Shown here: one piece after another, positions 20,107 through 62,384 of the stretch
Layout of the letters: the number at the start of each line of letters is the position of its first letter
Position numbering within the stretch: position 1 is the first letter of the stretch
NCBI GenBank assembly: GCA_016906335.1
Contig: JADEYG010000015.1
Coordinates: 744,001-808,000, forward strand
Direction of reading: 5' to 3'
DNA from: Novakomyces olei
Lineage: Eukaryota
DNA: 64,000 bases
Notes under the pieces: generated by a model
The model's database searches: none
Seen by the model: the letters and a program-made list of their open reading frames with translations, nothing else
Told to the model about the DNA's origin: nothing
Program-made: the position numbers and the translations under genes

Positions 20107-21888
20107 TCAAGCCTTGACACCACGGTGCCGCCATACGTGCCAATTTCCCAGCCACACACACATGGTGACTACTCCGACGAGGGCACTGATGGTGAAAGTC
20201 GTCTTGAAACATTTAAGGCCCACACAGAACCCGTTAGGATCAGCTTTCGCATCGTACTCCGACCCGTACATAAGACCAAAAAGCAGTCCGCCAAGTGCGG
20301 GAGCATAGGTCTGAATCCCCCAAAAGGTAGCGAAATTTTCCACTCCCCATACAGCGGAAATAACACTGGGAAATACGGTAAAAGTCCCACCATAGCCTGC
20401 TCCAATGAGGACAGTTGGCCAACCAAACAGGCTGCCATCAGGCCGTACTGCTCCAGTGGCAAACAAAATGGAAGCAATTACGGCAAAGAAATGTAGAAAG
20501 ATCAATACAAGGATCCTTGGAACACGGAAGCCACGATACCCGCCAGCAAGAAAGTCGCTGGCGGTTCCAACGATAAGGCGAGACGCCGTCGAGGAGAATG
20601 AGAGAAGCGATACCTGATACGAGCGGGCAGCTGACCTATCGCCCGAGGGCATTGACGACAATAGTGATTGGTAAATAGTGCCGATCTGGTATTAGAGCAT
20701 TTCGTAAAGGTCTGAGAGGGCAAATAAATAAACACGGCAAAAGTAAAAAGTTGTGAATCAACCAGTTCAAAAATTGATTGTTTGAGTGTATCAGATCTAA
20801 TTGTGAGATCAAATATAGATCTATTTCCAAAAAAAGATTAAATAAAAAGAAAAAAAAACAGCAGAATTACCGAGTTCATGTACATCTCTCCCATCCCGGT
20901 AAAGAGAAACCCAACAAAAAATAGCCAAGTAGTATGGTCTTTGAGGAAAGTGGGTAAATCTGCGCCGAGCAGACGGACGTTGTGGTGAGCAAGCAAAGGC
21001 TCATGCTCGCCTTGAGGACGGTGGTCGCCAGAAGAAAGCGGGTCCGCGACTTCAGACGGTTCTGGAAGCACCTTTAGGCCAAAGTAAGAGATGAATCCAG
21101 CGGTGCCGAGAACAATAGCGTAAAAAACCCAAAAGCGGGGCACGTCAATCTCCCTGAGCCACTCGATCTGTCCGTCCGGCAGAGTAATTGGCTCGAGGCG
21201 TTGGAAGAAAATGGCAGCCACTTGGCTCTGCCATAGAGCAGACAAGCCAAACGCAGTTATGGGCAGGGCAACAGCCACGCCTCGACGGCGGTCGTGGTTT
21301 TTCGCACACGTGGAAACGGCCGGCAGGTACAGGAAGCAGTTGACAGTGCCGATGGAGAAGAACACGGGGATGAACAGCCACCAGGCGGCTTTCACGACAT
21401 ACATTTGGTAGGCGACCAAGTATATTGCGGGGAACAAGAACCCGGCAGCCAAGCACAAGACATTGGGCCCGAGCCGGTCGCATATTGCTCCAGTGATGCT
21501 TTAATTAGTACAGAAAGCAGGCAAGAGAATAGCAACAAAGAATAGTCAAAAATAATAGTCAAAAAGACTCTTGCAAAGAGAATCGTGAAACAAAGCCGCC
21601 GCGGTACGCAGCAGCGCACGCAGCAAGGCGATGAGGAGGCGTCAACTCACGGGACCGGGATGTACTGTCCAATCTGGCAAGCGATCCCTACAATATTGAC
21701 TTGCAGCTGGGTAAACCCTAGCTCCGCCTGGAACACGGGCCCGTACAGCCCGTACACGGCCACATCTCCAGCGGACAAACTGCCGTTAGTTTTGTAAGTA
21801 ACAGAGACATTTACCAGTTGAGTACTGCGCAAGCAAACGAGACGGCGCGTCTCGCATTCGCTCTTGTCGCGGCATTCGGCGGCTCCAT
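20107..21888 (-). CDS. MCH1: MFS transporter, Mch1/nodulin-like
   Basis: Four exons; introns 21780-21814, 21499-21650 (AAG acceptor), 20686-20870. Motifs GAICDRLGP, TCAKN..RGVAVALPITAFGLSALW, WGVENFATFWG, FCVGLKCF. Confidence 0.85.
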
Positions 21889-47882: not shown

Positions 47883-49356
47883 ATGGCAGACGCCCAAGTT
47901 GGAAGGATATGCGTCGTTGGCGCCGGCCCCGTAGGATGTTTAGCCGCGCTGATGCTTGCGCATGAAGGTTTCCAAGTCACTGTAATAGAGTCGCGGTCGG
48001 GTAAGATTTGTAGTATACTAATATTAACTAACCAAAGATCCACGAGCACAGCAAAATACAGGGGATGGACGCCGCTCGATAAACCTCAACATCTCTGCGC
48101 GTGGAATAACTGCGCTTGAGGCAGTGGACCAAGTAATGGCCGCGCGTATACTGGAACACGCTGTGCCGATGAAGGCGCGGATGATCCATACACGGTCGGG
48201 TGAATGTGAATCACAGCTCTACGGTGTTCATGGCGAATGGATAAACTCGATAAGCCGATCCTTTTTAAACAACCGTTTACTGGATGAAATTGAAAGGCTA
48301 CAGACGGATGAAAAAGCGTATGCTCAGATTGATCTAGAGTTTGATCGAAAAGTCAGGGCAATTGATCTTGAGGCAGAAGGCGGTGTCAGCATAAGTAGTG
48401 TCAGCAAATCTGGAGAAAGTACTGTCCAGACTTTTGCGTCTGTCATTGGTGCAGATGGAGCTTTTTCACGTGTTCGGGCAGCGCTTCTGCGTGTAGCACG
48501 TGTGGACTTTTCGCAGGAGTATATTCCTCATGCTTACATGGAACTGCATATACCAGCGGGCCAAGGGAAGCCTCCCTGCTTCCAACTCGACCCTAATCAT
48601 CTCCATATTTGGCCTCGGCACGAATTCATGCTTATTGCCTTGCCCAACCGTGATGGCTCTTTTACGAGTACTCTGTTCGCTCCTTACGGCGTGTTTGACA
48701 AGTTCAGAACGGCTCAAGACATGGTTGAGTTCTTCCGGCAGCAGTTTCCCGATGCATTGGCGCTGATGGGTGAGGCGCATATTGAACACGCCTTTCGTGT
48801 AAATCCACGGCCGCCGCTGCTCACAGTGCGAACGAGTCAGTATAACTATGGCGGCCGTCTTTTGATTCTAGGAGACGCGGCTCATTGTATGGTGCCGTTT
48901 TACGGACAGGGCATGAATTGTGGGTTCGAGGACGTGCGAATTCTGCAGAAACTGTTACGGCACAGCGCGATTGGAGGCAGCCAAAGTCTAAATGAAGGTG
49001 GCGGCAAACTTCAACAATTAGGATCTGTTTTTAATGAATTTACTCGCCAACGCAGGCCAGACGTGGAGGCAATTACAAAATTAGCTATGGATAATTATGT
49101 GGAAATGAGGCACTCCGTCGTATCACCGCTTTATCGCGCACGGAAACGGTTGGACGGTTTACTCTGCCGGATACTAAATGATCGATGGCTCCCACTTTAT
49201 ACAATGGTGAGCTTCCGGCCGGATATTCCTTATAGTATAGCTCTAGCTCGAGAGCAATGGCAGCGTCGATTTCTTGAGCGCGTCATGCGCGGGATCCTTT
49301 TGGGCACGGGGTTCTTGCTGTGGGTTTTTCGGAAAAGGATTGCCCGTACAGCGTGA
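47883..49356 (+). CDS. BNA4: Kynurenine 3-monooxygenase
   Basis: GAGPVG FAD motif; intron 48001-48037 (AAG acceptor); RSINLNISARG, HLHIWPR, GDAAHCMVPFYGQGMNCGFED. Confidence 0.95.
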
Positions 49357-49556
49357 ACGTAAAACTTTATTATGAGCTGGTTATGCCGCGGTGCAAAGGC
49401 AACTGATCCAGGCATACGATTGCTCTAAAAAGTCTACAAATCTACTGATAGGCACAACTAAACATTGTGTTGTTATCAGCCTACTCACCAAACGAGGATT
49501 GAAAAACAAAATAGTACATATTCTAGACCATAATCTAACTTTGAACAACATTTAAT

Positions 49557-49754
49557 CTATGAAATACTACAGCCTTTAGGCAGGCCACAAGGCCCGCTTT
49601 CAGGCTCCTTTTCAGTGTCAAACGGTTCCGCTGGGTTTGCAGTATTAGTGTCTTTGCTCTGAGCCGTTTGCACAGGAGCAGCGGATGAAGGAAGGGGAGC
49701 GTCAACGGTATTCTTATCGCCGTCGTTATTACCAGACTTTTCGCCCGAGCGTAG
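49557..49754 (-). CDS. Putative cryptic in-frame C-terminal extension of the flavodoxin-like gene (65 aa, ending in CaaX CSIS)
   Basis: Hand translation after TAA: LRSGEKSGNNDGDKNTVDAPLPSSAAPVQTAQSKDTNTANPAEPFDTEKEPESGPCGLPKGCSIS then TAG at 49557-49559. Confidence 0.75.
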   Translation of the reverse strand, partial: LRSGEKSGNNDGDKNTVDAPLPSSAAPVQTAQSKDTNTANPAEPFDTEKEPESGPCGLPKGCSIS

Positions 49755-50515
49755 TTATTTCGTAACTGCCTCCACAAAAGACTTGCCCTGGATCTCGCCC
49801 ATTCTCAGTTCGAGCGGCGAAGGCATGCGCGCGCCAGTGCCGCTGGCCAAGGTACCTGCACCCCATGGAGAGCCACCATGAACCTCGTCCAAGGAAGTGA
49901 GCTCAGCAAAAGCCTTGGCGTAACCGAGAGGCACAAAAGAGATACCGTGATGAACAAGTGTAGACATTGTATTAAGGGCCGTTGTTTCCTGTCCTCCGCC
50001 AAGACCACCAGTAGAGACAAAGATACCGGCACGCTTGCCCCACAAAGCGCCCTGGGCCCACAATTGGCCAGTAGAATCCCAGAACGCCTTCCATTGCGCT
50101 GGCATATTACCATAGCGTGTAGGAATTCCAAACAAAAAGTACTCGTACTCTTTCATCGTGTCCGGGGTGGCAATTGGGATTGAAGAGTTTTTTGGTGGAG
50201 CGTGCATTTTGGTCAGAATCTCTTCAGGTAACGTCTCCTGAACCTGGTACAGGTCGGCAATTGCGCCAGCCGATTCCACTCCCTGCAAGGTCAGCCTGCG
50301 CTGAAAACGAAAGAGATGTAACGAAAATGTATTAAATGAATTAAATAAATCATAAAGACGAGGATCAATCTTCAATTGAAACGGAATGATGCAGTTATAG
50401 GTTATGCGGTAACAACAGCGGGTATGGAAGGATAAAGTACCTTTTTCACGCTCTCTGCGAGTTTTTGGATATGGCCATACATAGAGTAGGTGATGATTGC
50501 AACACGGGGAGCCAT
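49755..50515 (-). CDS. WrbA-type flavodoxin-like NAD(P)H:quinone oxidoreductase (Pst2/Ycp4/Obr1 family), 200-aa short form
   Basis: Exon 1 [25 protein letters not shown]; intron 50283-50440 (GTACTT...GCTGACCTTGCAG); [26 protein letters not shown]. Confidence 0.95.
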
Positions 50516-51755: not shown

Positions 51756-54700
51756 ATGGCTCTGTTGCGTGGCCCGCTGCGTCAATTGACGCAGCGGTTT
51801 ACGAGGCAAGCTGTTTCGCCCTCGCGCGGGCTTTGTACTCTTCCGCAATTGACAAATGGCTCCTTGTACAGAGCGGCGGCAATTCGCTCAAACATGGCAA
51901 GAATCAATGCCACGAGTGGGCTGCGCGGCTATGCGGCCGCAGCAGACGCATCTGTTACCGAAAAATACTACGCCAAGGGCCTCAAGCGCACCGGGAATCT
52001 CGAGCAAGTCAAAAAGGTGCTTGTTGTGGGCAGCGGTGGGCTTAGTATCGGACAAGCCGGGGAGTTTGATTATTCTGGTAGGTTTTGTTAGGGTTTACGA
52101 TTGACCTTTTTGGTGGACAATTGGGTTGGGCATAAATGTTTTTTTCCCTTTGGTCTTTTGATTATAATTTCGTCTTGCACGGTATTTGTGATATCCGTTC
52201 AGTCAACTACTCTCAGCCCCAGCCATTTCTGCTACACTTTTATTGGCCTCTACTTTTTCTCTTGAAACTCAGTGGTCACGTGTTTGCCGCTATGGCCCAG
52301 CCGTTCAGTCAGTTTGATCTTTAATCATACTTTCTCCTTCAGCAAGCTGCTAAACATTTACAGGCTCTCAGGCTATTAAAGCTCTGCGTGAAAGCAACGT
52401 CAAATCGATCCTTGTCAACCCCAACATTGCCACTATTCAAACCTCTCATGTAAGGCTTTTCCAGTATCATGCTTTAAAAAGAAAAAAATGGTGGTAAAAA
52501 ATAATAAAAAATAATACTTCCAATACAACTCTATACAAGGCTAACCGTTACAGCATCTGGCAGACGAAGTCTATTTCATCCCTGTTACTCCCGAGTATGT
52601 TACGTATATCATTGAACGCGAGCGCCCCGACGGAATCCTCCTCACCTTTGGCGGCCAAACTGCGCTCAATATTGGTGTAAATTTGGACAAGATGGGCGTC
52701 TTTGACATGTACAATGTGAAAGTCCTTGGAACGCCCATCAAGACTCTGGAAACTTCGGAAGACCGCGACCTGTTTGCGCGGGCACTGGACGAAATTGAGA
52801 TCCCTATTGCTACTTCTTTCGCCGTAGAATCTGTGGACGAGGCTCTTAAAGCCGCGGACGACATTGGCTACCCGATCATTGTCCGTTCGGCTTACTCCTT
52901 GGGCGGCCTGGGATCTGGTTTTGCAGCGAATCCGGAGCAACTTGAATCCCTGGCAGCTCGGTCCCTTTCTCTCACTCCCCAAATCCTGGTGGAGAAGAGC
53001 CTGAAAGGCTGGAAGGAGGTCGAGTATGAAGTTGTACGCGACGCCGACAACAATTGTATCACTGTGTGTAACATGGAGAACTTTGACCCTCTCGGAATCC
53101 ACACGGGTGACTCTATCGTGGTGGCTCCCTCACAGACGCTTTCCGACGAGGAGTATCACATGCTCCGCACAGCAGCAATAAAGATTATCCGCCACTTGGG
53201 CGTTGTGGGCGAGTGCAATGTGCAGTACGCTTTGGCGCCCTCTGGTTTGGACTATAGGGTGATTGAGGTGAACGCCCGTCTTAGCCGGTCTTCTGCCCTG
53301 GCCTCCAAGGCCACCGGCTACCCTCTGGCCTACACTGCTGCCAAGATTGCCCTGGGCCATACGCTGCCAGAGCTGCCCAATGCTGTGACAAAGACGACTA
53401 CTGCCAATTTTGAGCCCTCCCTGGACTATATCGTCACCAAGATCCCTCGCTGGGACCTGTCCAAGTTCCAGTATGTGGACAGGCACGTTGGCTCTGGCAT
53501 GAAGAGTGTCGGTGAAGTGATGGCCATTGGTCGTACCTTTGAAGAGTCTCTGCAGAAAGCAATCAGACAGGTCGACCCCGCCTTCCGAGGCTTTATGAGT
53601 CTGCCGTTTGAGGACGTTGATACAGTGCTGCAGGAGCCAACTGACCGCCGCCTTTTCGCAGTGGGCAATGCCATGCTGGAAAAAGGCTATTCCATCGACA
53701 AGATCCATGACATGACAAAGATTGACAAATGGTTTTTGCAAAAGCTCGATAATATTGTGCAGGTACGCAATGCTCTGCTGCAAGTCGGGCAAGAAGGCAG
53801 CGGCCTAACCAACTTGTCGTACGACCTGACCCGTACAGCTAAACGGCACGGCTTCTCTGATCTGCAGATAGCCGAGCTGCTGGGCTCTGGAGTGACAGAG
53901 CTGCAGGTCCGTGCTCACCGGCAGGCTCACGGCATTACGCCTATAGTAAAACGCATCGACACACTGGCGGCCGAGTTCCCGGCCAGCACAAACTACCTGT
54001 ACACCACATACAATGCCACGAGCCATGATGTCACCTTCGACGAGCACGGCACAATGGTCCTCGGGTCCGGAGTGTACAGGATCGGGTCGAGTGTCGAGTT
54101 TGATTGGTGCGGAGTCTCCTGCGCTCGAGCTCTGCGCAAAGTGGGCACAAAGACGATAATGGTAAACTACAACCCCGAGACAGTGAGCACAGACTATGAC
54201 GAATCTGAGCGGCTTTATTTCGAGGAACTCGGGTACGAAAGAGTAATGGACATTTACGAGCTGGAGGGCGCTTCTGGTGTCGTTGTCTCTGTCGGGGGAC
54301 AGCTGCCGCAGAATATTGCTCTGCGGCTGCAGCGAGACGGCGGAGCCAACGTGCTCGGCACTGATCCAGCGGATATCGATATGGCAGAGGACAGGCACAA
54401 GTTCAGCAGTGTCCTGGACCGTATCGGCCTGGACCAGCCCGAGTGGGCAGAGCTCACCAGCGTCGACCAGGCTCGGCAGTTTGCCGACAAGGTCGGGTTC
54501 CCTCTCCTCGTCCGGCCGAGCTATGTCCTCTCTGGCGCAGCTATGAGCGTCGTACACGACGCTCATACTCTGGCAGACAAGCTGGAAAACGCAAGTGCCG
54601 TTTCCCCCGACCACCCTGTCGTTCTGACAAAGTTTATACAGGGAGCCCGAGAGATTGACGTGGACGCTGTCGCTCACAAGGGACGATTGCTTGTTCATGC

Positions 54701-55679
54701 TGTCAGTGAGCATATCGAGAACGCTGGTGTCCACTCTGGCGACGCTACTATTGCTCTGCCGCCTTACAGTCTGCCTGCCGCTATTGTGGAGAGGTGCAAG
54801 TCTATTGCAGAGAGAGTGGCCTCTGCTTTTACCATCACTGGTCCTTTTAATATGCAGGTCATCTATGACGAGCAGACGGCCTCGCTTAAAGTCATCGAGT
54901 GCAATCTGCGAGCCTCCCGGTCTTTTCCGTTTGTCAGCAAAGTGCTGGGCTTGAATTTTATCGATGTGGCCACTAAAGCCATCGTGGGCAAGGACGTGCC
55001 TGAGCCTGTAGACCTTATGCAGCAGCCACGGGACTATTGTGCCGTCAAAGTGCCCCAGTTCTCGTGGACCAGGCTGGCTGGCGCTGACCCTTATCTCGGC
55101 GTCGAGATGGCCTCTACCGGCGAAGTAGCCTGCTTTGGCCGGGACGTTCATGAGGCCTACTGGGCCGCCATCCAGTCGACGCAAAACTTTAAAGTGCCGA
55201 TCCCGGGTAACGGGATCCTGCTGGGCGGTGACACTGAGCAGCCAGAGCTTGGGCGTGTAGCCCTTGTCCTGGCGCCTATGGGCTACAACTTGTACACTGC
55301 CAGCCACAGCGTCCGCGACTATATCAACTCTGTGCTAGAGCAGGCACAATCGGCCGTCCGTGCTGAAGCTATCGCTTTCCCTACAACGGACAAGAATGCG
55401 CTGCGAAAGGTGTTTGACGACAAGAAAATCGATGCCGTTATCAATCTGGCCTCTGCCCGTGGCCGAGATCAGCTGGACCAGGATTATGTCATGCGCCGAA
55501 ACGCTGTTGATTTTGGAAGGACACTGATCAACGATGCTAAATGCGCCATCATGTTTGCCGAGTGCCTGCAGCGCGATATTCCTTTTGTCGTTGAGCAGAG
55601 CAAACGCGCCATCGGGAAACGCGAGATCCCTCCTGAAGTCAAGCGGTGGAGCGAATTTACTGCTACTCGCGACCTGTAA
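51756..55679 (+). CDS. CPA2: Arginine-specific carbamoyl-phosphate synthetase large subunit with mitochondrial presequence
   Basis: [24 protein letters not shown]; introns 52078-52363 and 52450-52553; [30 protein letters not shown]. No GATase/ATCase domains, so not URA2. Confidence 0.95.
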
Positions 55680-55754
55680 TCTGCCGGCTTTAGCCTTTGC
55701 TAGTCTTGTCGATTTGATATATATACATTTATCTCGCTTGTAATACAAAACAAT

Positions 55755-56296
55755 AAAACAGAATAGAAATAGAAATGAAATAGAAATAAAATAGAAATAA
55801 AATAGAAATAGAAATAGAAATAAAATAGAAATAAAATAGAAATAAAATAGAAATAAAATAGAAATAAAATAGAAATAAAATAGAAATAAAATAGACATAA
55901 AATAGAAATAAAATAGAAATAGAAATGAAATAGAAATAAAATAGAAATAAAATAGAAATAAAATAGAAATGAAATAGAAATAAAATAGAAATAAAATAGA
56001 AATAGAAATGAAATAGAAATAAAATAGAAATAAAATAGAAATAGAAATGAAATAGAAATGAAATAGAAATATAGAAATATAGAAATATAGAAATATAGAA
56101 ATATAGAAATATAGAAATATAGAAATATAGAAATATAGAAATATAGAAATATAGAAATATAGAAATATAGAAATATAGAAATATAGAAATATAGAATATA
56201 GAATATAGAAATATAGAAATATAGAAATATAGAAATATAGAAATATAGAAATATAGAAATATAGAAATATAGAATATAGAATATAGAAATATAGAA
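55755..56296. repeat. Compound satellite: 11-bp GAAATAAAATA switching to 8-bp GAAATATA
   Basis: Visible between the convergent CPA2 and ERV46 genes. Confidence 0.95.
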
Positions 56297-56614
56297 CAAC
56301 AATACTACTTTATAAATATAAACGAATTATTGATTGCAAAGTTGTGTGCTCGTCTGCAAAACGACTATTCATATTATAAAGTGTACCGTTGTGCGTTTTG
56401 CAACGTCTATGCTTTCGATTTATTTACAGAAGCATTACAGCGTTCGTGCCAAGTAACATTTCTCTTTAGTAGCGATCTTAAATTGCTCTATTCATGATAG
56501 ACTCTTGCCAAAGTCCTTTATCTACAAAAACCGTAGCAGAACGCCATGTTCAGCAATTTAGTCTTTTTCTTTTATCTATAATCTGCAGTGCAGAATCATT
56601 TTGGTATCGTGAAA

Positions 56615-58284: not shown

Positions 58285-58874
58285 TTTCTACGGGCAATTG
58301 GTTAGGCTTGGCCGGTGCAGCTAATTAACAATTGAGTTTATTTTCAAACATATAAATCTTTACATAGGACGAAGCATAGCTTACAAATTTGCTACATTGG
58401 ACGGCAATGGATCAATGGCCTTTACGAACAAGAGTGATGACGATTATTTGCTACTGCGATCTATACATCTCGCGGACTGACACGTACGCAGTTCAAATTG
58501 CGCTGTGATTATGTGCGTTAATTTACGTGAATGCGTAAAAAAGGTACTGAAATCTAATCTATAGAAAATGATTAGTACAGCCTCGAGTTAAAAGACTCTT
58601 AATATTAATTATTTTCTAAATTCACAAATAGAAATGAGTCTATTTTGCTCCAACTAATATTTAAAATAAAATTGAAAAATTGTAAAGTGCCGTGTATATA
58701 ATAAAATATAATATAATATAATAAAAAAAATACAATACAATAAAATATAATAAAATAAAATAAAATAAAATACAATATTTTTGACATATATATTTATAAA
58801 ATCTTGATTTAAATAAAATAAAAAGCAAATACCACCTGTTTATTGAGCAGTCTTGTCCCCGCGACAGTTTCAGC

Positions 58875-61800
58875 ATGGCCAACCGTGTGATGCTGAATGG
58901 TCGCTCGGCCATGGACGGCGACGTTTACGGTGAAAGTGTGGAGTATGTGGAAAGTGTGGTTCCCGATGGCGAAGAGGCAGCTGGTGCGGAAGACGAACCG
59001 ATGCCTGGTCGACGGTCTCTTGCTGGGCAGTACACTGCGCCAAAAGACGCTATGCAGGAATTTGCAGACGCAGAAGAAGATCCTATGCAGGGCAGCTTAA
59101 ACTCACGGCAGATCCAGAGCCGAGAAACCGATTACCAGAGACGTCGGTTTGACAGGGGCGCTGGTCAAATGCGACGCGATCTCGGTGGCGATGGGTCTGA
59201 GGGCAAAACCTACGCTGAGGTCATGGCAGAGCAAGAGCTGAGTCGTGAGGAGGCGCGTGTAGCTGAAGAGATCAAGAAAAAAGAGGAGGAGAGTAAAGAG
59301 ATGAGAAGAGAGGGTAGAGCAGAGACAAAAGCAGAAATAAAAAAGGAAGAACAAAGCAGTAGTGAGCTGCGGCCACGTCGACGCCGGTTTGACGTTAAGC
59401 CAGAGCAGGCAGATGGAAGTGTACCCGAGAAAATCGCCGAGAAAATCGGGCAAGAACCGACTCGTGCTGTGAAGCGTTCACGATGGGACGAAGCGCCGGC
59501 AGTGGAAAAGGCTCCGGCAAAGCGATCACGATGGGATCGAGCGGGTGCTCTTGAGGATGGAGAAAAGCCACAACGGTCAGGTGAGAAAGTAGAAGCTGCA
59601 GAGCCTCAAGGCGGTATGGCGGAGAACGATCTACGAGTCGGGACTCTATCCGACGCAGAACTAAACGAGATCCTTCCGTCTGCCGGCTTCACTATTGTAG
59701 AGCCGCCTGCAGGTTATGTGCCGCAGAGGACAAAGAGACGCCAGGCTCCTGTGCTGGACGACGAGCAGCCAACTGGCTACGTCATGCCAGAGGAGAACAC
59801 GTCTTTGGCTAAGCAGTTGGGTGCGGAGCTGCCTACAGACATTCCCGGCGTGGGTGATTTGGCGTTTTTCAAGCAGGAAGATATGAAGTTTTTTGGTAAA
59901 CTGCTTGATTCTACACCTGAGGAGGATCTCGCGCTGGAAGAGCTGCGGGAGCGCAAGATTATGCGACTAATACTCAAAGTAAAGAATGGGACACCGCCCA
60001 TGCGTAAATCAGCTCTGCGACAAATCACTGACGCTGCTCGCCAGTTTGGCGCGGGTCCATTGTTTAATCAAATCCTGCCGCTGCTAATGGAGCGGACTCT
60101 GGAGGACCAAGAGCGCCATTTACTTGTCAAAATTATTGATCGATGTCTTTACAAGCTGGATGACTTGGTGCGGCCTTATGTCCACAAGATTCTAGTGGTA
60201 ATTGAGCCGCTTTTGATTGATGAAGATTACTATGCACGCGCAGAGGGACGGGAGATTATTTCTAATTTGTCCAAGGCAGCCGGATTAGCGTGCATGATTT
60301 CCACAATGCGACCTGATATTGATCATGCCGATGAGTATGTGCGTAATACTACAGCTAGAGCATTTGCCGTGGTCGCTAGTGCCCTCGGTGTTCCCGCGCT
60401 GTTGCAGTTTTTAAAGGCTGTTTGCCGGAGCAAAAAATCGTGGCAAGCTAGGCACACGGGTGTAAGGATAGTGCAGCAAATCGCTATTCTCATGGGCTGT
60501 GGTATCCTTCCACACCTGAAAAGCCTTGTGGATTGTATAGCACCAAACTTGGAGGATGAGCAGCAAAAAGTTCGTACAATTACAGCGCTAGCACTGGCGG
60601 CCTTGGCAGAGGCAGCTGCTCCCTATGGCATCGAGTCCTTTGACAGTGTACTGGAGACCCTGTGGAAGGGTGTCAAGCGGCACCGTGGAAAAGGGTTGGC
60701 TGCTTTTTTGAAGGCTACCGGGTTCATTATTCCGTTGATGGACCCAGATTATGCTGCGGGTTTCACAAAGCGGATAATGGACGTTTTACGGCGAGAGTTT
60801 ACCTCGCCGGACGAGGAAATGAAGAAAATTGTTCTTAAAGTCGTGAGCCAGTGCAGTGCAACAGAGGGTGTTGAGCCCAAATTTCTAAGGACAGAAGTTA
60901 TGCCTGATTTTTTCAAGAATTTCTGGGTTCGACGAATGGCACTGGATCGTCGCAACTACAGGCAAGTTGTGGAAACAACGGTTGAACTGGCACAAAAAGT
61001 CGGAGTGCAGTTAATTGTGGGTACAATTGTGCAAAACCTCAAGGACGAGAGCGAACCCTACCGCAAAATGACAGTGGAGACAATCGGCAAGGCAATTACG
61101 TCTCTCGGAGCTGCCGATATTGATGAGCGGCTGGAGGAGAGACTGATTGATGGAATTCTGTTTGCTTTCCAGGAACAGTCGGTAGAGGATATTGCTTTGC
61201 TTGATGGCTTTGGTATTGTAGTAAACGCCTTTGGCTTACGGTGCAAGCCGTACCTGCCGCAGATTGTGTCCACAATTTTATGGCGCTTAAACAACAAGTC
61301 GGCTAAAGTACGGCAGCAGTCGGCCGACTTGATCTCGCGCATTGCTGTTGTGCTGGCGGCCTGCGGTGAAGAACAGCTCTTGGGCAAACTGGGAATTGTG
61401 CTCTACGAGTATTTGGGCGAAGAGTACCCAGAAGTGTTGGGTTCAATACTGGGTGCCCTGCGTGCTGTAGTGGCCGTGGTGGGTATGGGAAACATGCAGC
61501 CCTCTATCAAAGACCTGCTGCCCCGTTTAACGCCTATTCTGCGCAACAGGCACGAAAAAGTACAGGAGAACACGATTGATCTGGTGGGCCGTATCGCTGA
61601 TCGGGGTCCGGAGTACGTGTCTGCCCGGGAGTGGATGCGTATCTGTTTTGAGCTGTTGGACATGCTGAGAGCGCATAAAAAAGGCATCAGACGGGCAGCA
61701 GTGAACACTTTTGGCTACATTGCTCAGGCGATTGGTCCACAGGACGTTTTAGCCCTACTTTTGAACAACCTTAAAGTCCAGGAAAGGCAGAACCGGGTTT

Positions 61801-62384
61801 GCACTACTGTTGCTATAGCAATTGTAGCGGAAACGTGTGCCCCCTTCACCGTAGTACCGGCGCTAATGGCGGACTACAGAACGCCCGAGATTAATGTACA
61901 GAATGGTGTACTGAAATCGCTCTCCTTTATGTTTGAGTACATTGGTGAACTCGGGCGGGACTACGTTTATGCAGTTGCACCATTGCTGGAGGACGCTTTG
62001 ACCGACCGGGACCAGGTTCATCGGCAGACTGCTGCCAGTGTGGTAAAGCACATGTCTCTCGGCTCAGCGGGCCTTGATCTGGAAGATGCAATGCAGCACC
62101 TACTCAATATGGTCTGGCCCAACATCCTCGAGGAGTCGCCCCACGTTATCAATGCTGTGCGCGAAGCGATTGACGGTATACGCAACTGTGTGGGTGTGGC
62201 TGTCGTCCTCAATTACTTGCTGCAAGGCCTTTTCCATCCGAGCCGAAAGGTTCGGCATTCGTACTGGATGGTCTACAACAATGCGTATGTGCAGCATGCG
62301 GACGCAATGGTCCCCTACTACCCAACTGTGCCGGACGACGACAAGAATCAGTGGGTGCGGCACGATATGTACATGGTTTTGTGA
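58875..62384 (+). CDS. HSH155: U2 snRNP SF3B1 (Hsh155/Prp10)
   Basis: SRWD ULM motifs, [16 protein letters not shown] repeats ([37 protein letters not shown]). Confidence 0.97.

Follow-up and report, generated by a model that had tools for sequence, protein, structure and literature searches.

An in-frame stop codon between a flavodoxin-like quinone reductase and a CaaX-type tail in Novakomyces olei: candidate read-through to a lipid-anchored isoform

The quinone reductase gene

The 64,000-nucleotide (nt) stretch of DNA considered here (the window; positions 744,001 to 808,000 of contig JADEYG010000015.1 from Novakomyces olei) carries on its minus strand a two-exon gene for a flavodoxin-like enzyme, in which a single stop codon separates the enzyme from a same-frame extension with a CaaX box at its end. 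The product is 200 residues long when translation ends at that stop, and would reach 266 residues with the stop bypassed. All features are listed in Table 1, with positions counted from the first letter of the window.

Exon 2 alone scores 32.8 bits against the PF03358 FMN_red profile (cut-off 24), the protein is 65-72% identical to homologues in fungi that carry the names Pst2, Alt a 7 or benzoquinone reductase, and the conserved sequence blocks of the enzyme domain align with those homologues. A preliminary description of this DNA had called the product a flavodoxin-like quinone reductase, and both the profile score and the homologue identity bear this out. The gene is of the WrbA/Pst2/Alt a 7 type, encoding a flavodoxin-like protein with predicted NAD(P)H:quinone reductase activity.

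The minus-strand sequence confirms that the enzyme frame closes with TAA and that the next codon is CTA, as the preliminary description had read it. The same stop is present in two assemblies from different studies. One of the contigs (X1, depth 1166) is possibly the window's own source; the other (X2) comes from a different study and spans 154 nt (49726-49879, depth 2.8). Both agree with the window letter for letter. Of the four runs compared, all on record as DNA, X3 covered 151 nt of the window and X4 nothing. Because contigs from the runs of two studies match the window over the TAA, a base-call error, earlier entertained as a caveat, is judged unlikely. The surroundings of the stop are also uncommon within the window: among 23 non-overlapping stop-to-stop open reading frames (ORFs) of at least 200 residues, which serve as a crude gene list, this is the only one whose stop is followed by CTA, so that the earlier claim of uniqueness holds on that list.

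Table 1. Features of the quinone reductase locus and of genes elsewhere in the window
Feature	Position	Strand	Remarks
Exon 1	50441..50515	-	ATG at 50515-50513; aligns with homologue N-termini
Intron, 158 nt	50283..50440	-	GTACTT...CTGAC...TTGCAG; boundaries from homologue alignment (between KK and GVESAG)
Exon 2	49758..50282	-	175 sense codons, remainder of the flavodoxin-like fold; stop extends the exon to 49755
In-frame stop TAA	49755..49757	-	AAA before, CTA after
CTA (Leu) codon	49752..49754	-	Directly after TAA; read-through-type 3' context
Same-frame extension, 65 codons	49560..49754	-	Hydrophilic linker and conserved tail; profile match and coding-like codon usage in this frame only
End motif SGPCGLPKGCSIS	49560..49598	-	Matches (S/E)GPCGLPxKCaaX of long-form homologues
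Upstream Cys codon	49587-49589	-	Within the end motif, seven residues before CaaX
CaaX box CSIS	49560-49571	-	At the C-terminal end of the extension
Second stop TAG	49557..49559	-	Directly after the CaaX box
AT-rich, non-coding-like 3' region	49357..49556	-	From TAG to the end of the monooxygenase-like gene; G+C 0.36, codon score -0.65
FAD-binding monooxygenase-like gene (PF01494)	48028-49356	+	Convergent neighbour, its end 200 nt from the tail TAG
Carbamoyl-phosphate synthase large-chain gene	51760-55679	+	Two homology-inferred introns; start of exon 1 approximate
Carbamoyl-phosphate synthase intron, 286 nt	52078-52363	+	GTAGGT...CTAAAC...ACAG
Carbamoyl-phosphate synthase intron, 104 nt	52450-52553	+	GTAAGG...CTAAC...ACAG
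SF3b1 (splicing factor 3B subunit 1) gene	58800-62384	+	Single long ORF

The reading frame behind the stop

Past the TAA, the same frame stays open and reads LRSGEKSGNNDGDKNTVDAPLPSSAAPVQTAQSKDTNTANPAEPFDTEKEPESGPCGLPKGCSIS (49754-49560), its last residues being ...EKEPESGPCGLPKGCSIS; an example of a peptide that lies within it is NTVDAPLPSSAAPVQTAQSK. The sequence thus upholds the claim of 65 further open codons that finish with a CaaX box (CSIS) and a TAG. Two compositional claims proved equally sound, the hand count of 102 G+C in 195 nt being exact and the sequence turning AT-rich behind the second stop, where the next 195 nt have a G+C content of 0.36.

Open frames of this length do occur behind other stops. 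At 65 codons the extension ranks third among the 23 long ORFs, for which the median is 12. The two longer ones lie behind minus-strand ORFs whose stops are not followed by CT: an ORF at 20838-21500 continues in frame for 111 codons past its stop, which may be an exon boundary, and one at 55700-56326 continues for 71 codons. The latter starts just past the point where the carbamoyl-phosphate synthase ORF of the other strand finishes, and it is possibly no gene at all.

Three lines of evidence set the extension apart from a chance open frame. The first is homology. Annotated long forms from many Pezizomycotina (240-267 residues) run from ...VSK through a hydrophilic linker and all end in (S/E)GPCGLPxKCaaX, a consensus that all 13 residues of the window's end motif fit. 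A BLASTP comparison of the tail with one database homologue (P0015) gave 6e-07. The second is the uniqueness of the match. The C-terminal 22 residues of 16 homologues annotated in the long form, with the window sequence excluded, were made into a hidden Markov model (HMM), which was compared with 2293 six-frame segments of the window; its sole match was 49560-49754 on the minus strand (E 4.9e-6), the next best segment reaching 1.2. The third is codon usage. The tail frame scores +0.31 bits per codon, close to the enzyme exon (+0.27), and the other two frames of the same DNA score -0.08 and -1.38; all 15 control 3' regions are negative, ranging from -2.5 to -0.08. Because the ends of homologues match, the HMM match is unique and the codon usage is coding-like, the downstream frame is more than chance.

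Alignment and the HMM score likewise bear out the claim that the tail is homologous to that of the Ycp4-like long forms. The architecture of those proteins is present in its parts, namely a hydrophilic linker, a lipidation motif and a Cys four residues from the end. What is missing is the uninterrupted frame from domain to tail that Ycp4-type long forms possess, the TAA here separating the domain from the linker. The terminal CSIS, directly before a stop, fits a predicted CaaX prenylation substrate, with its Cys, an aliphatic residue at a2 and an X that prenyltransferase accepts. CaaX boxes in which X is Ser favour farnesyltransferase.

On the far side of the TAG lies the convergent monooxygenase-like gene. 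If the tail is transcribed, this gene and the quinone reductase gene would share a short AT-rich 3' spacer.

The same layout in distant fungi

The most informative relatives are those for which DNA is available. A metagenome scan produced ten related loci, of which only three, all VNF-type (L001, L003 and L008), bear a tail. Judged by their sequence, L001 and L003 are distant Pezizomycotina contigs and not close relatives. The first reads ...AISKVNFA-TGA-CTA-GAT, followed by 52 open codons ending EGPCGLPTKCTIL-stop, and carries the canonical TGA-CTA-G read-through motif; the second reads ...AVSKVNFA-TAA-CTG-CAG, followed by 74 open codons ending SGPCGLPVKCVVS-stop. An enzyme domain, a single stop and an in-frame tail are thus present at two of the three fungal VNF-type loci with DNA.

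These two loci parted long ago. Their residues agree to 80% within the domain but to 39% over the C-terminal stretch. Of 55 four-fold sites, 22 are the same, which is near saturation. Both have kept the stop at the same codon, a CT after it, an open tail in the same frame and the end motif. Motif and open frame would not have lasted through near-saturated divergence in a dead tail. Within the motif itself, the codons for GPCGLP vary only synonymously among the window, L001, L003 and L008. The expectation that orthologues would show a conserved stop, an open frame and a CaaX end therefore stood in part: the stop followed by CT, the open frame and the CaaX box all recur in L001 and L003, while L008 is spliced and the stop of the window occupies a different position (both discussed below).

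The remaining loci of the scan are without such a tail. L002 ends ...ETIQKF-stop in the manner of the short forms of yeasts, and no tail was found in its three-frame translation to about 450 nt past the match. The other six (L004-L007, L009 and L010) are AT-rich, intron-rich homologues of 44-54% identity that belong to some other eukaryote. Proteins of these six loci finish with ...LVLKLT..., and the GPCGLP tail is absent from the frames viewed. A separate scan of bacterial and archaeal contigs for fungal contaminants yielded only prokaryotic WrbA at all 80 kept loci, at no more than 51% identity.

As for the organism itself, the best named matches of its SF3b1 protein are those of Taphrina and Pneumocystis (80%), Schizosaccharomyces (79%), and Protomyces and Saitoella (78%), with no database protein exceeding 81% identity. 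These matches suggest a fungus of the Taphrinomycotina type, and the protein database offers no close relative of it.

The Pezizomycotina loci bear directly on the leading alternative account of the window, that its tail is a relic. In a Ycp4-type gene, a nonsense mutation would have struck the first codon of the linker, or an effective bypass would have been lost, and the gene would now make the soluble enzyme only. A nonsense mutation in the linker leaves the enzyme intact and hence could be tolerated, and a recent event would also leave behind a coding-like composition and an intact motif. Moreover, read-through is weaker at UAA than at UGA in the fungal work of Stiebler et al. (PMC4207609), and the window's stop falls at a different codon from that of L001 and L003. 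That said, the stop falls precisely where the domain gives way to the linker, which is also the place at which short forms finish, and is followed by the read-through-type CTA that only one of the 23 ORFs has. The end motif lies wholly within the family consensus (13 of 13 residues), and the presence of the same layout with intact tails in two anciently diverged fungi points to a stop at this junction as a state that the family maintains rather than a stage of decay. Weighing these together, we regard a relic as rather unlikely. The recent nonsense mutation against which the preliminary description cautioned fares accordingly: the recurrence of the layout in two distant Pezizomycotina contigs speaks against a private event of this kind as the general explanation, and the mutation survives as the relic account of the window alone.

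Database gene models and the question of editing

Signs of the same interruption are spread through the annotated proteins of the family. Among 32 short homologues fetched, 11 end exactly in ...KV(N/S)FA, which is the stop position of L001 and L003, and two models from Clarireedia jacksonii end at ...AISKVNFA; Clarireedia, Rutstroemia and Sclerotinia supply the nearest named relatives of L001. Other models carry on past this point in inconsistent ways. A Rutstroemia model equals L001 without exactly VNFA-stop-LD, two Sclerotinia models (P0063 and P0126) omit differing stretches, and disagreement around the junction of domain and tail extends over P0122, P0124, P0125, P0126, P0063, P0023 and P0060. 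Because the jumps over the stop vary among models, they look like ad hoc model introns rather than conserved splice sites, and the disagreement looks like a systematic annotation problem arising from the in-frame stop.

A further group of proteins has a Trp (W) where the stop would be. P0123, predicted from a fungal JGI metagenome contig, reads VNFA-W-LDG...GPCGLPSKCAVL-W-DINDF... and runs on into apparent 3' sequence. As it has W also at the site where every other family member ends, directly after its CaaX box, it was evidently translated with TGA as W, and its first W would then be a TGA too. Three others (P0015, P0062 and P0247) have W and then L at the stop position, so that a Leu follows the stop or the W in L001, L003, P0123, P0015, P0062 and P0247 alike. 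A search with the tail only, against 1.84 billion representatives, gave two suggestive matches, the short fragments P0247 and P0248, both as protein only; the latter resembles a tail ORF with intron-like sequence before the tail.

The W at the stop position in four database proteins brings to mind RNA editing, in which an A-to-I stop-loss change turns a stop into a Trp codon, a process known from filamentous ascomycetes in their sexual stages. Fusarium is a documented case in which stop-loss editing adds C-terminal extensions; the favoured substrate is UAG, where a U stands at -1, and one edit at UAA yields UGA, which is still a stop (PMC13123824). TAG is not among the three stops known as DNA, which are TAA, TGA and TAA, and the W at the terminal stop of P0123 indicates translation with TGA as W and not an edit. 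To our knowledge, A-to-I stop-loss editing is known only in Pezizomycotina, and the organism studied here looks Taphrinomycotina-like. Editing is accordingly a very improbable explanation. Decoding of the stop as selenocysteine was rejected outright, because two of the three stops known at the DNA level are TAA.

Proposed read-through to a lipid-anchored isoform

The explanation that we consider probable, though far from secure, is that programmed stop-codon read-through yields a minor prenylated isoform from this one gene. Most ribosomes would terminate at the UAA (49757-49755) and release the soluble 200-residue NAD(P)H:quinone reductase. A small fraction would decode the UAA by a near-cognate tRNA in the context AAA-UAA-CUA and go on to translate 65 more codons, giving a predicted disordered, hydrophilic linker that ends in SGPCGLPKGCSIS. 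The CSIS box would then be prenylated, with farnesyl according to the general CaaX rules for X = Ser, and the conserved Cys seven residues upstream of the box may bear a second lipid. The minor isoform would in this way be tethered to a membrane, where the family is thought to keep ubiquinone reduced. The stop, the open frame, the homology to genuine CaaX tails and the recurrence of the layout in distant fungi are matters of observation; from them we infer read-through in this organism, lipidation of the tail and the cellular location of the long isoform.

The sequence around the stop agrees with this proposal in part. In a fungus, the main determinant of read-through was found to be the CU after the stop, and a UGA-CUA-(G) motif was enough to bring it about (Stiebler et al. 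2014, PMC4207609). The window has UAA-CUA-C, with the CU in place, UAA as the stop and C as the base after CUA. The possibility of a dedicated decoder, a suppressor tRNA, was also considered, and a scan found no tRNA genes in the window.

Several observations weigh against read-through. The base after CUA is C and not the G of the extended UGA-CUA-G motif, and UAA gave less read-through than UGA in the same fungal study (PMC4207609). The sequence 3' of the stop forms no stable RNA structure: z is +0.62, and 143 of 200 shuffled versions fold equally well or better. The stop of the window (K-stop-L) lies four codons before that of the relatives (KVNFA-stop-L), and so may be an independent event. 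The comparative sample with DNA consists of three relatives, the W readings in the four database proteins rest on protein sequence and not on DNA, and there is no close relative in the protein database, where the best homologue of the enzyme reaches 72% and SF3b1 at most 81%. Finally, the third tail-bearing relative, L008, reaches its tail by another route altogether, a 98-nt GT-AG intron (622-719; L008:600-905) behind which the tail lies in a different frame.

The case of L008 deserves some attention. Its intron, preceded by G and followed by GA, reads GTGCGT...TTTTGTAG and has a TGA within its first codons, and its tail ends EGPCGLPKKCTLL. With the intron retained, translation would end at ...KVNFGA-stop; with the intron spliced, the long form would result. 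The family thus seems to use two routes to the same two isoforms, and bypass of the stop is not always read-through, because L008 gets to its tail by splicing.

Could splicing account for the window as well? A small in-frame intron would then span the TAA, and its retention would give the short form. L008 furnishes a precedent, with a TGA inside the intron that leads to its CaaX tail; P0248, too, is like a tail ORF with intron-like sequence upstream, and a stop followed by C (TAAC, TGAC) resembles the core of a branch point. Candidate mini-introns do exist around the stop of the window, namely GTTACG...AAAAG (30 nt), GTTACG...GATAAG (54 nt) and GTGGAG... (39 or 63 nt), and all of them are in frame. 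They bear little likeness to the introns of this organism, whose splice signals could be derived from only three window introns (158, 286 and 104 nt): these homology-inferred introns all start with GTA (GTACTT, GTAGGT and GTAAGG) and are 104-286 nt long, against 30-63 nt for the candidates. No GTA-type donor occurs within 73 nt upstream of the TAA, where only GTCTTT, GTGGAG and GTTACG are available. Hexamer counts intended to give a splice consensus showed no enrichment of canonical donors in the window, which has too few introns. The Pezizomycotina loci tell the same story. L003 has a canonical 77-nt intron elsewhere in its gene (GTAAGT...TACTAAC...CAG), whereas around its stop a single GT-AG segment is present, which spans 21 nt from a GTCAAC donor to a closing ...CAG; the matching GT...AG segment of L001 has 19 nt and would break the frame. 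Splicing, moreover, needs no open frame after the stop, yet the frame is open at all three single-stop loci. Splicing over the stop of the window is for these reasons improbable.

Read-through therefore remains the reading that we favour for the window, and the question becomes how widely it might apply. It is conceivable, though we would stop short of giving it an even chance, that the stop followed by a Leu codon (CUN) between the reductase domain and the GPCGLPxxCaaX tail is an old and widespread recoding module of Ascomycota. Such a module would span this Taphrinomycotina-like fungus and several classes of Pezizomycotina, with an intron-retention design in some lineages. The layouts of the window and of the Pezizomycotina loci may have a deep common origin or may have arisen in parallel.

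Comparison with known systems

Freitag et al. reportedly described in 2012 how cryptic peroxisomal targeting in fungi comes about by stop-codon read-through or alternative splicing. The parallel with the present gene is close. As set out for cryptic peroxisomal targeting signals of the PTS1 kind in fungi and animals by Stiebler et al. (2014, PMC4207609), a housekeeping enzyme is followed by a stop in a leaky CU(A) context, a sorting signal stands at the extreme end of the extension, and a minor isoform is relocated; read-through and splicing are interchangeable across species, much as they appear to be between L001 and L003 on one side and L008 on the other. The differences lie in the signal and the destination. 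Here a CaaX box stands behind a linker of 50-75 residues instead of a PTS1 tripeptide behind a short extension, the stop of the window is UAA, and the destination would be a membrane surface and not the peroxisome matrix.

The long form of the enzyme has its own precedent in Ycp4. The Candida albicans protein has an extension of about 90 residues with a terminal CAAX box, and for the flavodoxin-like proteins of that species, which are found at the plasma membrane, a role in keeping ubiquinone reduced there has been proposed (Li et al. 2015, PMC4556627). Yeast Ycp4 is reported to be palmitoylated (bioRxiv 10.1101/2023.04.27.538084). The Ycp4 long forms belong to the same enzyme family as the window's gene and have the same order of flavodoxin fold, hydrophilic linker and Cys-containing lipidation end, and the family has been tied to the plasma membrane and to protection against oxidants (PMC4556627). 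Yeast Ycp4 is, however, a separate paralogue with an uninterrupted frame, and the Saccharomycotina sequences fetched end in CCxxM. The one copy seen in the window has a stop ahead of its linker and tail, the latter being of the Pezizomycotina type, GPCGLPxxCaaX.

Bypass of a stop that adds a prenylation box is known from the large antigen of hepatitis delta virus, of which there is an unprenylated short form and a prenylated long one. The bypass in that case is RNA editing of the stop codon by a host deaminase, and the genome is viral; ribosomal read-through in a cellular gene is proposed here. The A-to-I stop-loss editing of Fusarium graminearum similarly removes a stop conditionally and adds a C-terminal extension, acting on UAG to give UGG in a stage-specific manner, with extensions that are destabilising (PMC13123824). 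In the present family the stops are TAA or TGA, and the extension has a conserved targeting motif.

Prenylation has come up before in genome-wide surveys of read-through. One in Drosophila includes a single extension predicted to carry a prenylation signal, with no follow-up described in the part concerned (Dunn et al. 2013, PMC3840789), and one in Arabidopsis, in the portion available, reports no conserved isoprenylation site (PMC9293766). Both deal with other families, and the portions available show no cross-lineage conservation.

Implications

That read-through can expose a sorting signal is already known for PTS1, and the functional read-through described so far in fungi and animals serves mostly to uncover signals for the peroxisome. 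The preliminary description had supposed that such a use was undescribed for this enzyme family, and the literature searched is in agreement: no read-through or stop-interrupted CaaX tail was found in the family, with the proviso that supplementary tables might list one. A paper on CHE1 that came up in the search was set aside, as it concerns a zinc-finger gene and not the flavodoxin-like family.

If the recoding module is real, the efficiency of termination (or of splicing) would decide how much of the enzyme is soluble and how much is anchored in a membrane, and this would be the first case in which read-through controls lipid anchoring. Lipid anchoring would then join the processes that can be controlled by termination efficiency. 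It would also explain how fungi without separate Pst2 and Ycp4 paralogues come to have both a cytosolic and a membrane-bound enzyme. The enzyme is of interest in itself: flavodoxin-like proteins guard fungal membranes against oxidative damage and are required for the virulence of Candida (PMC4556627). On the practical side, many of the family's "short" and "long" annotated models would turn out to be two views of one gene, and recognition of the recoding would correct many annotations, both those that end at ...KVNFA and those that jump the stop with invented introns.

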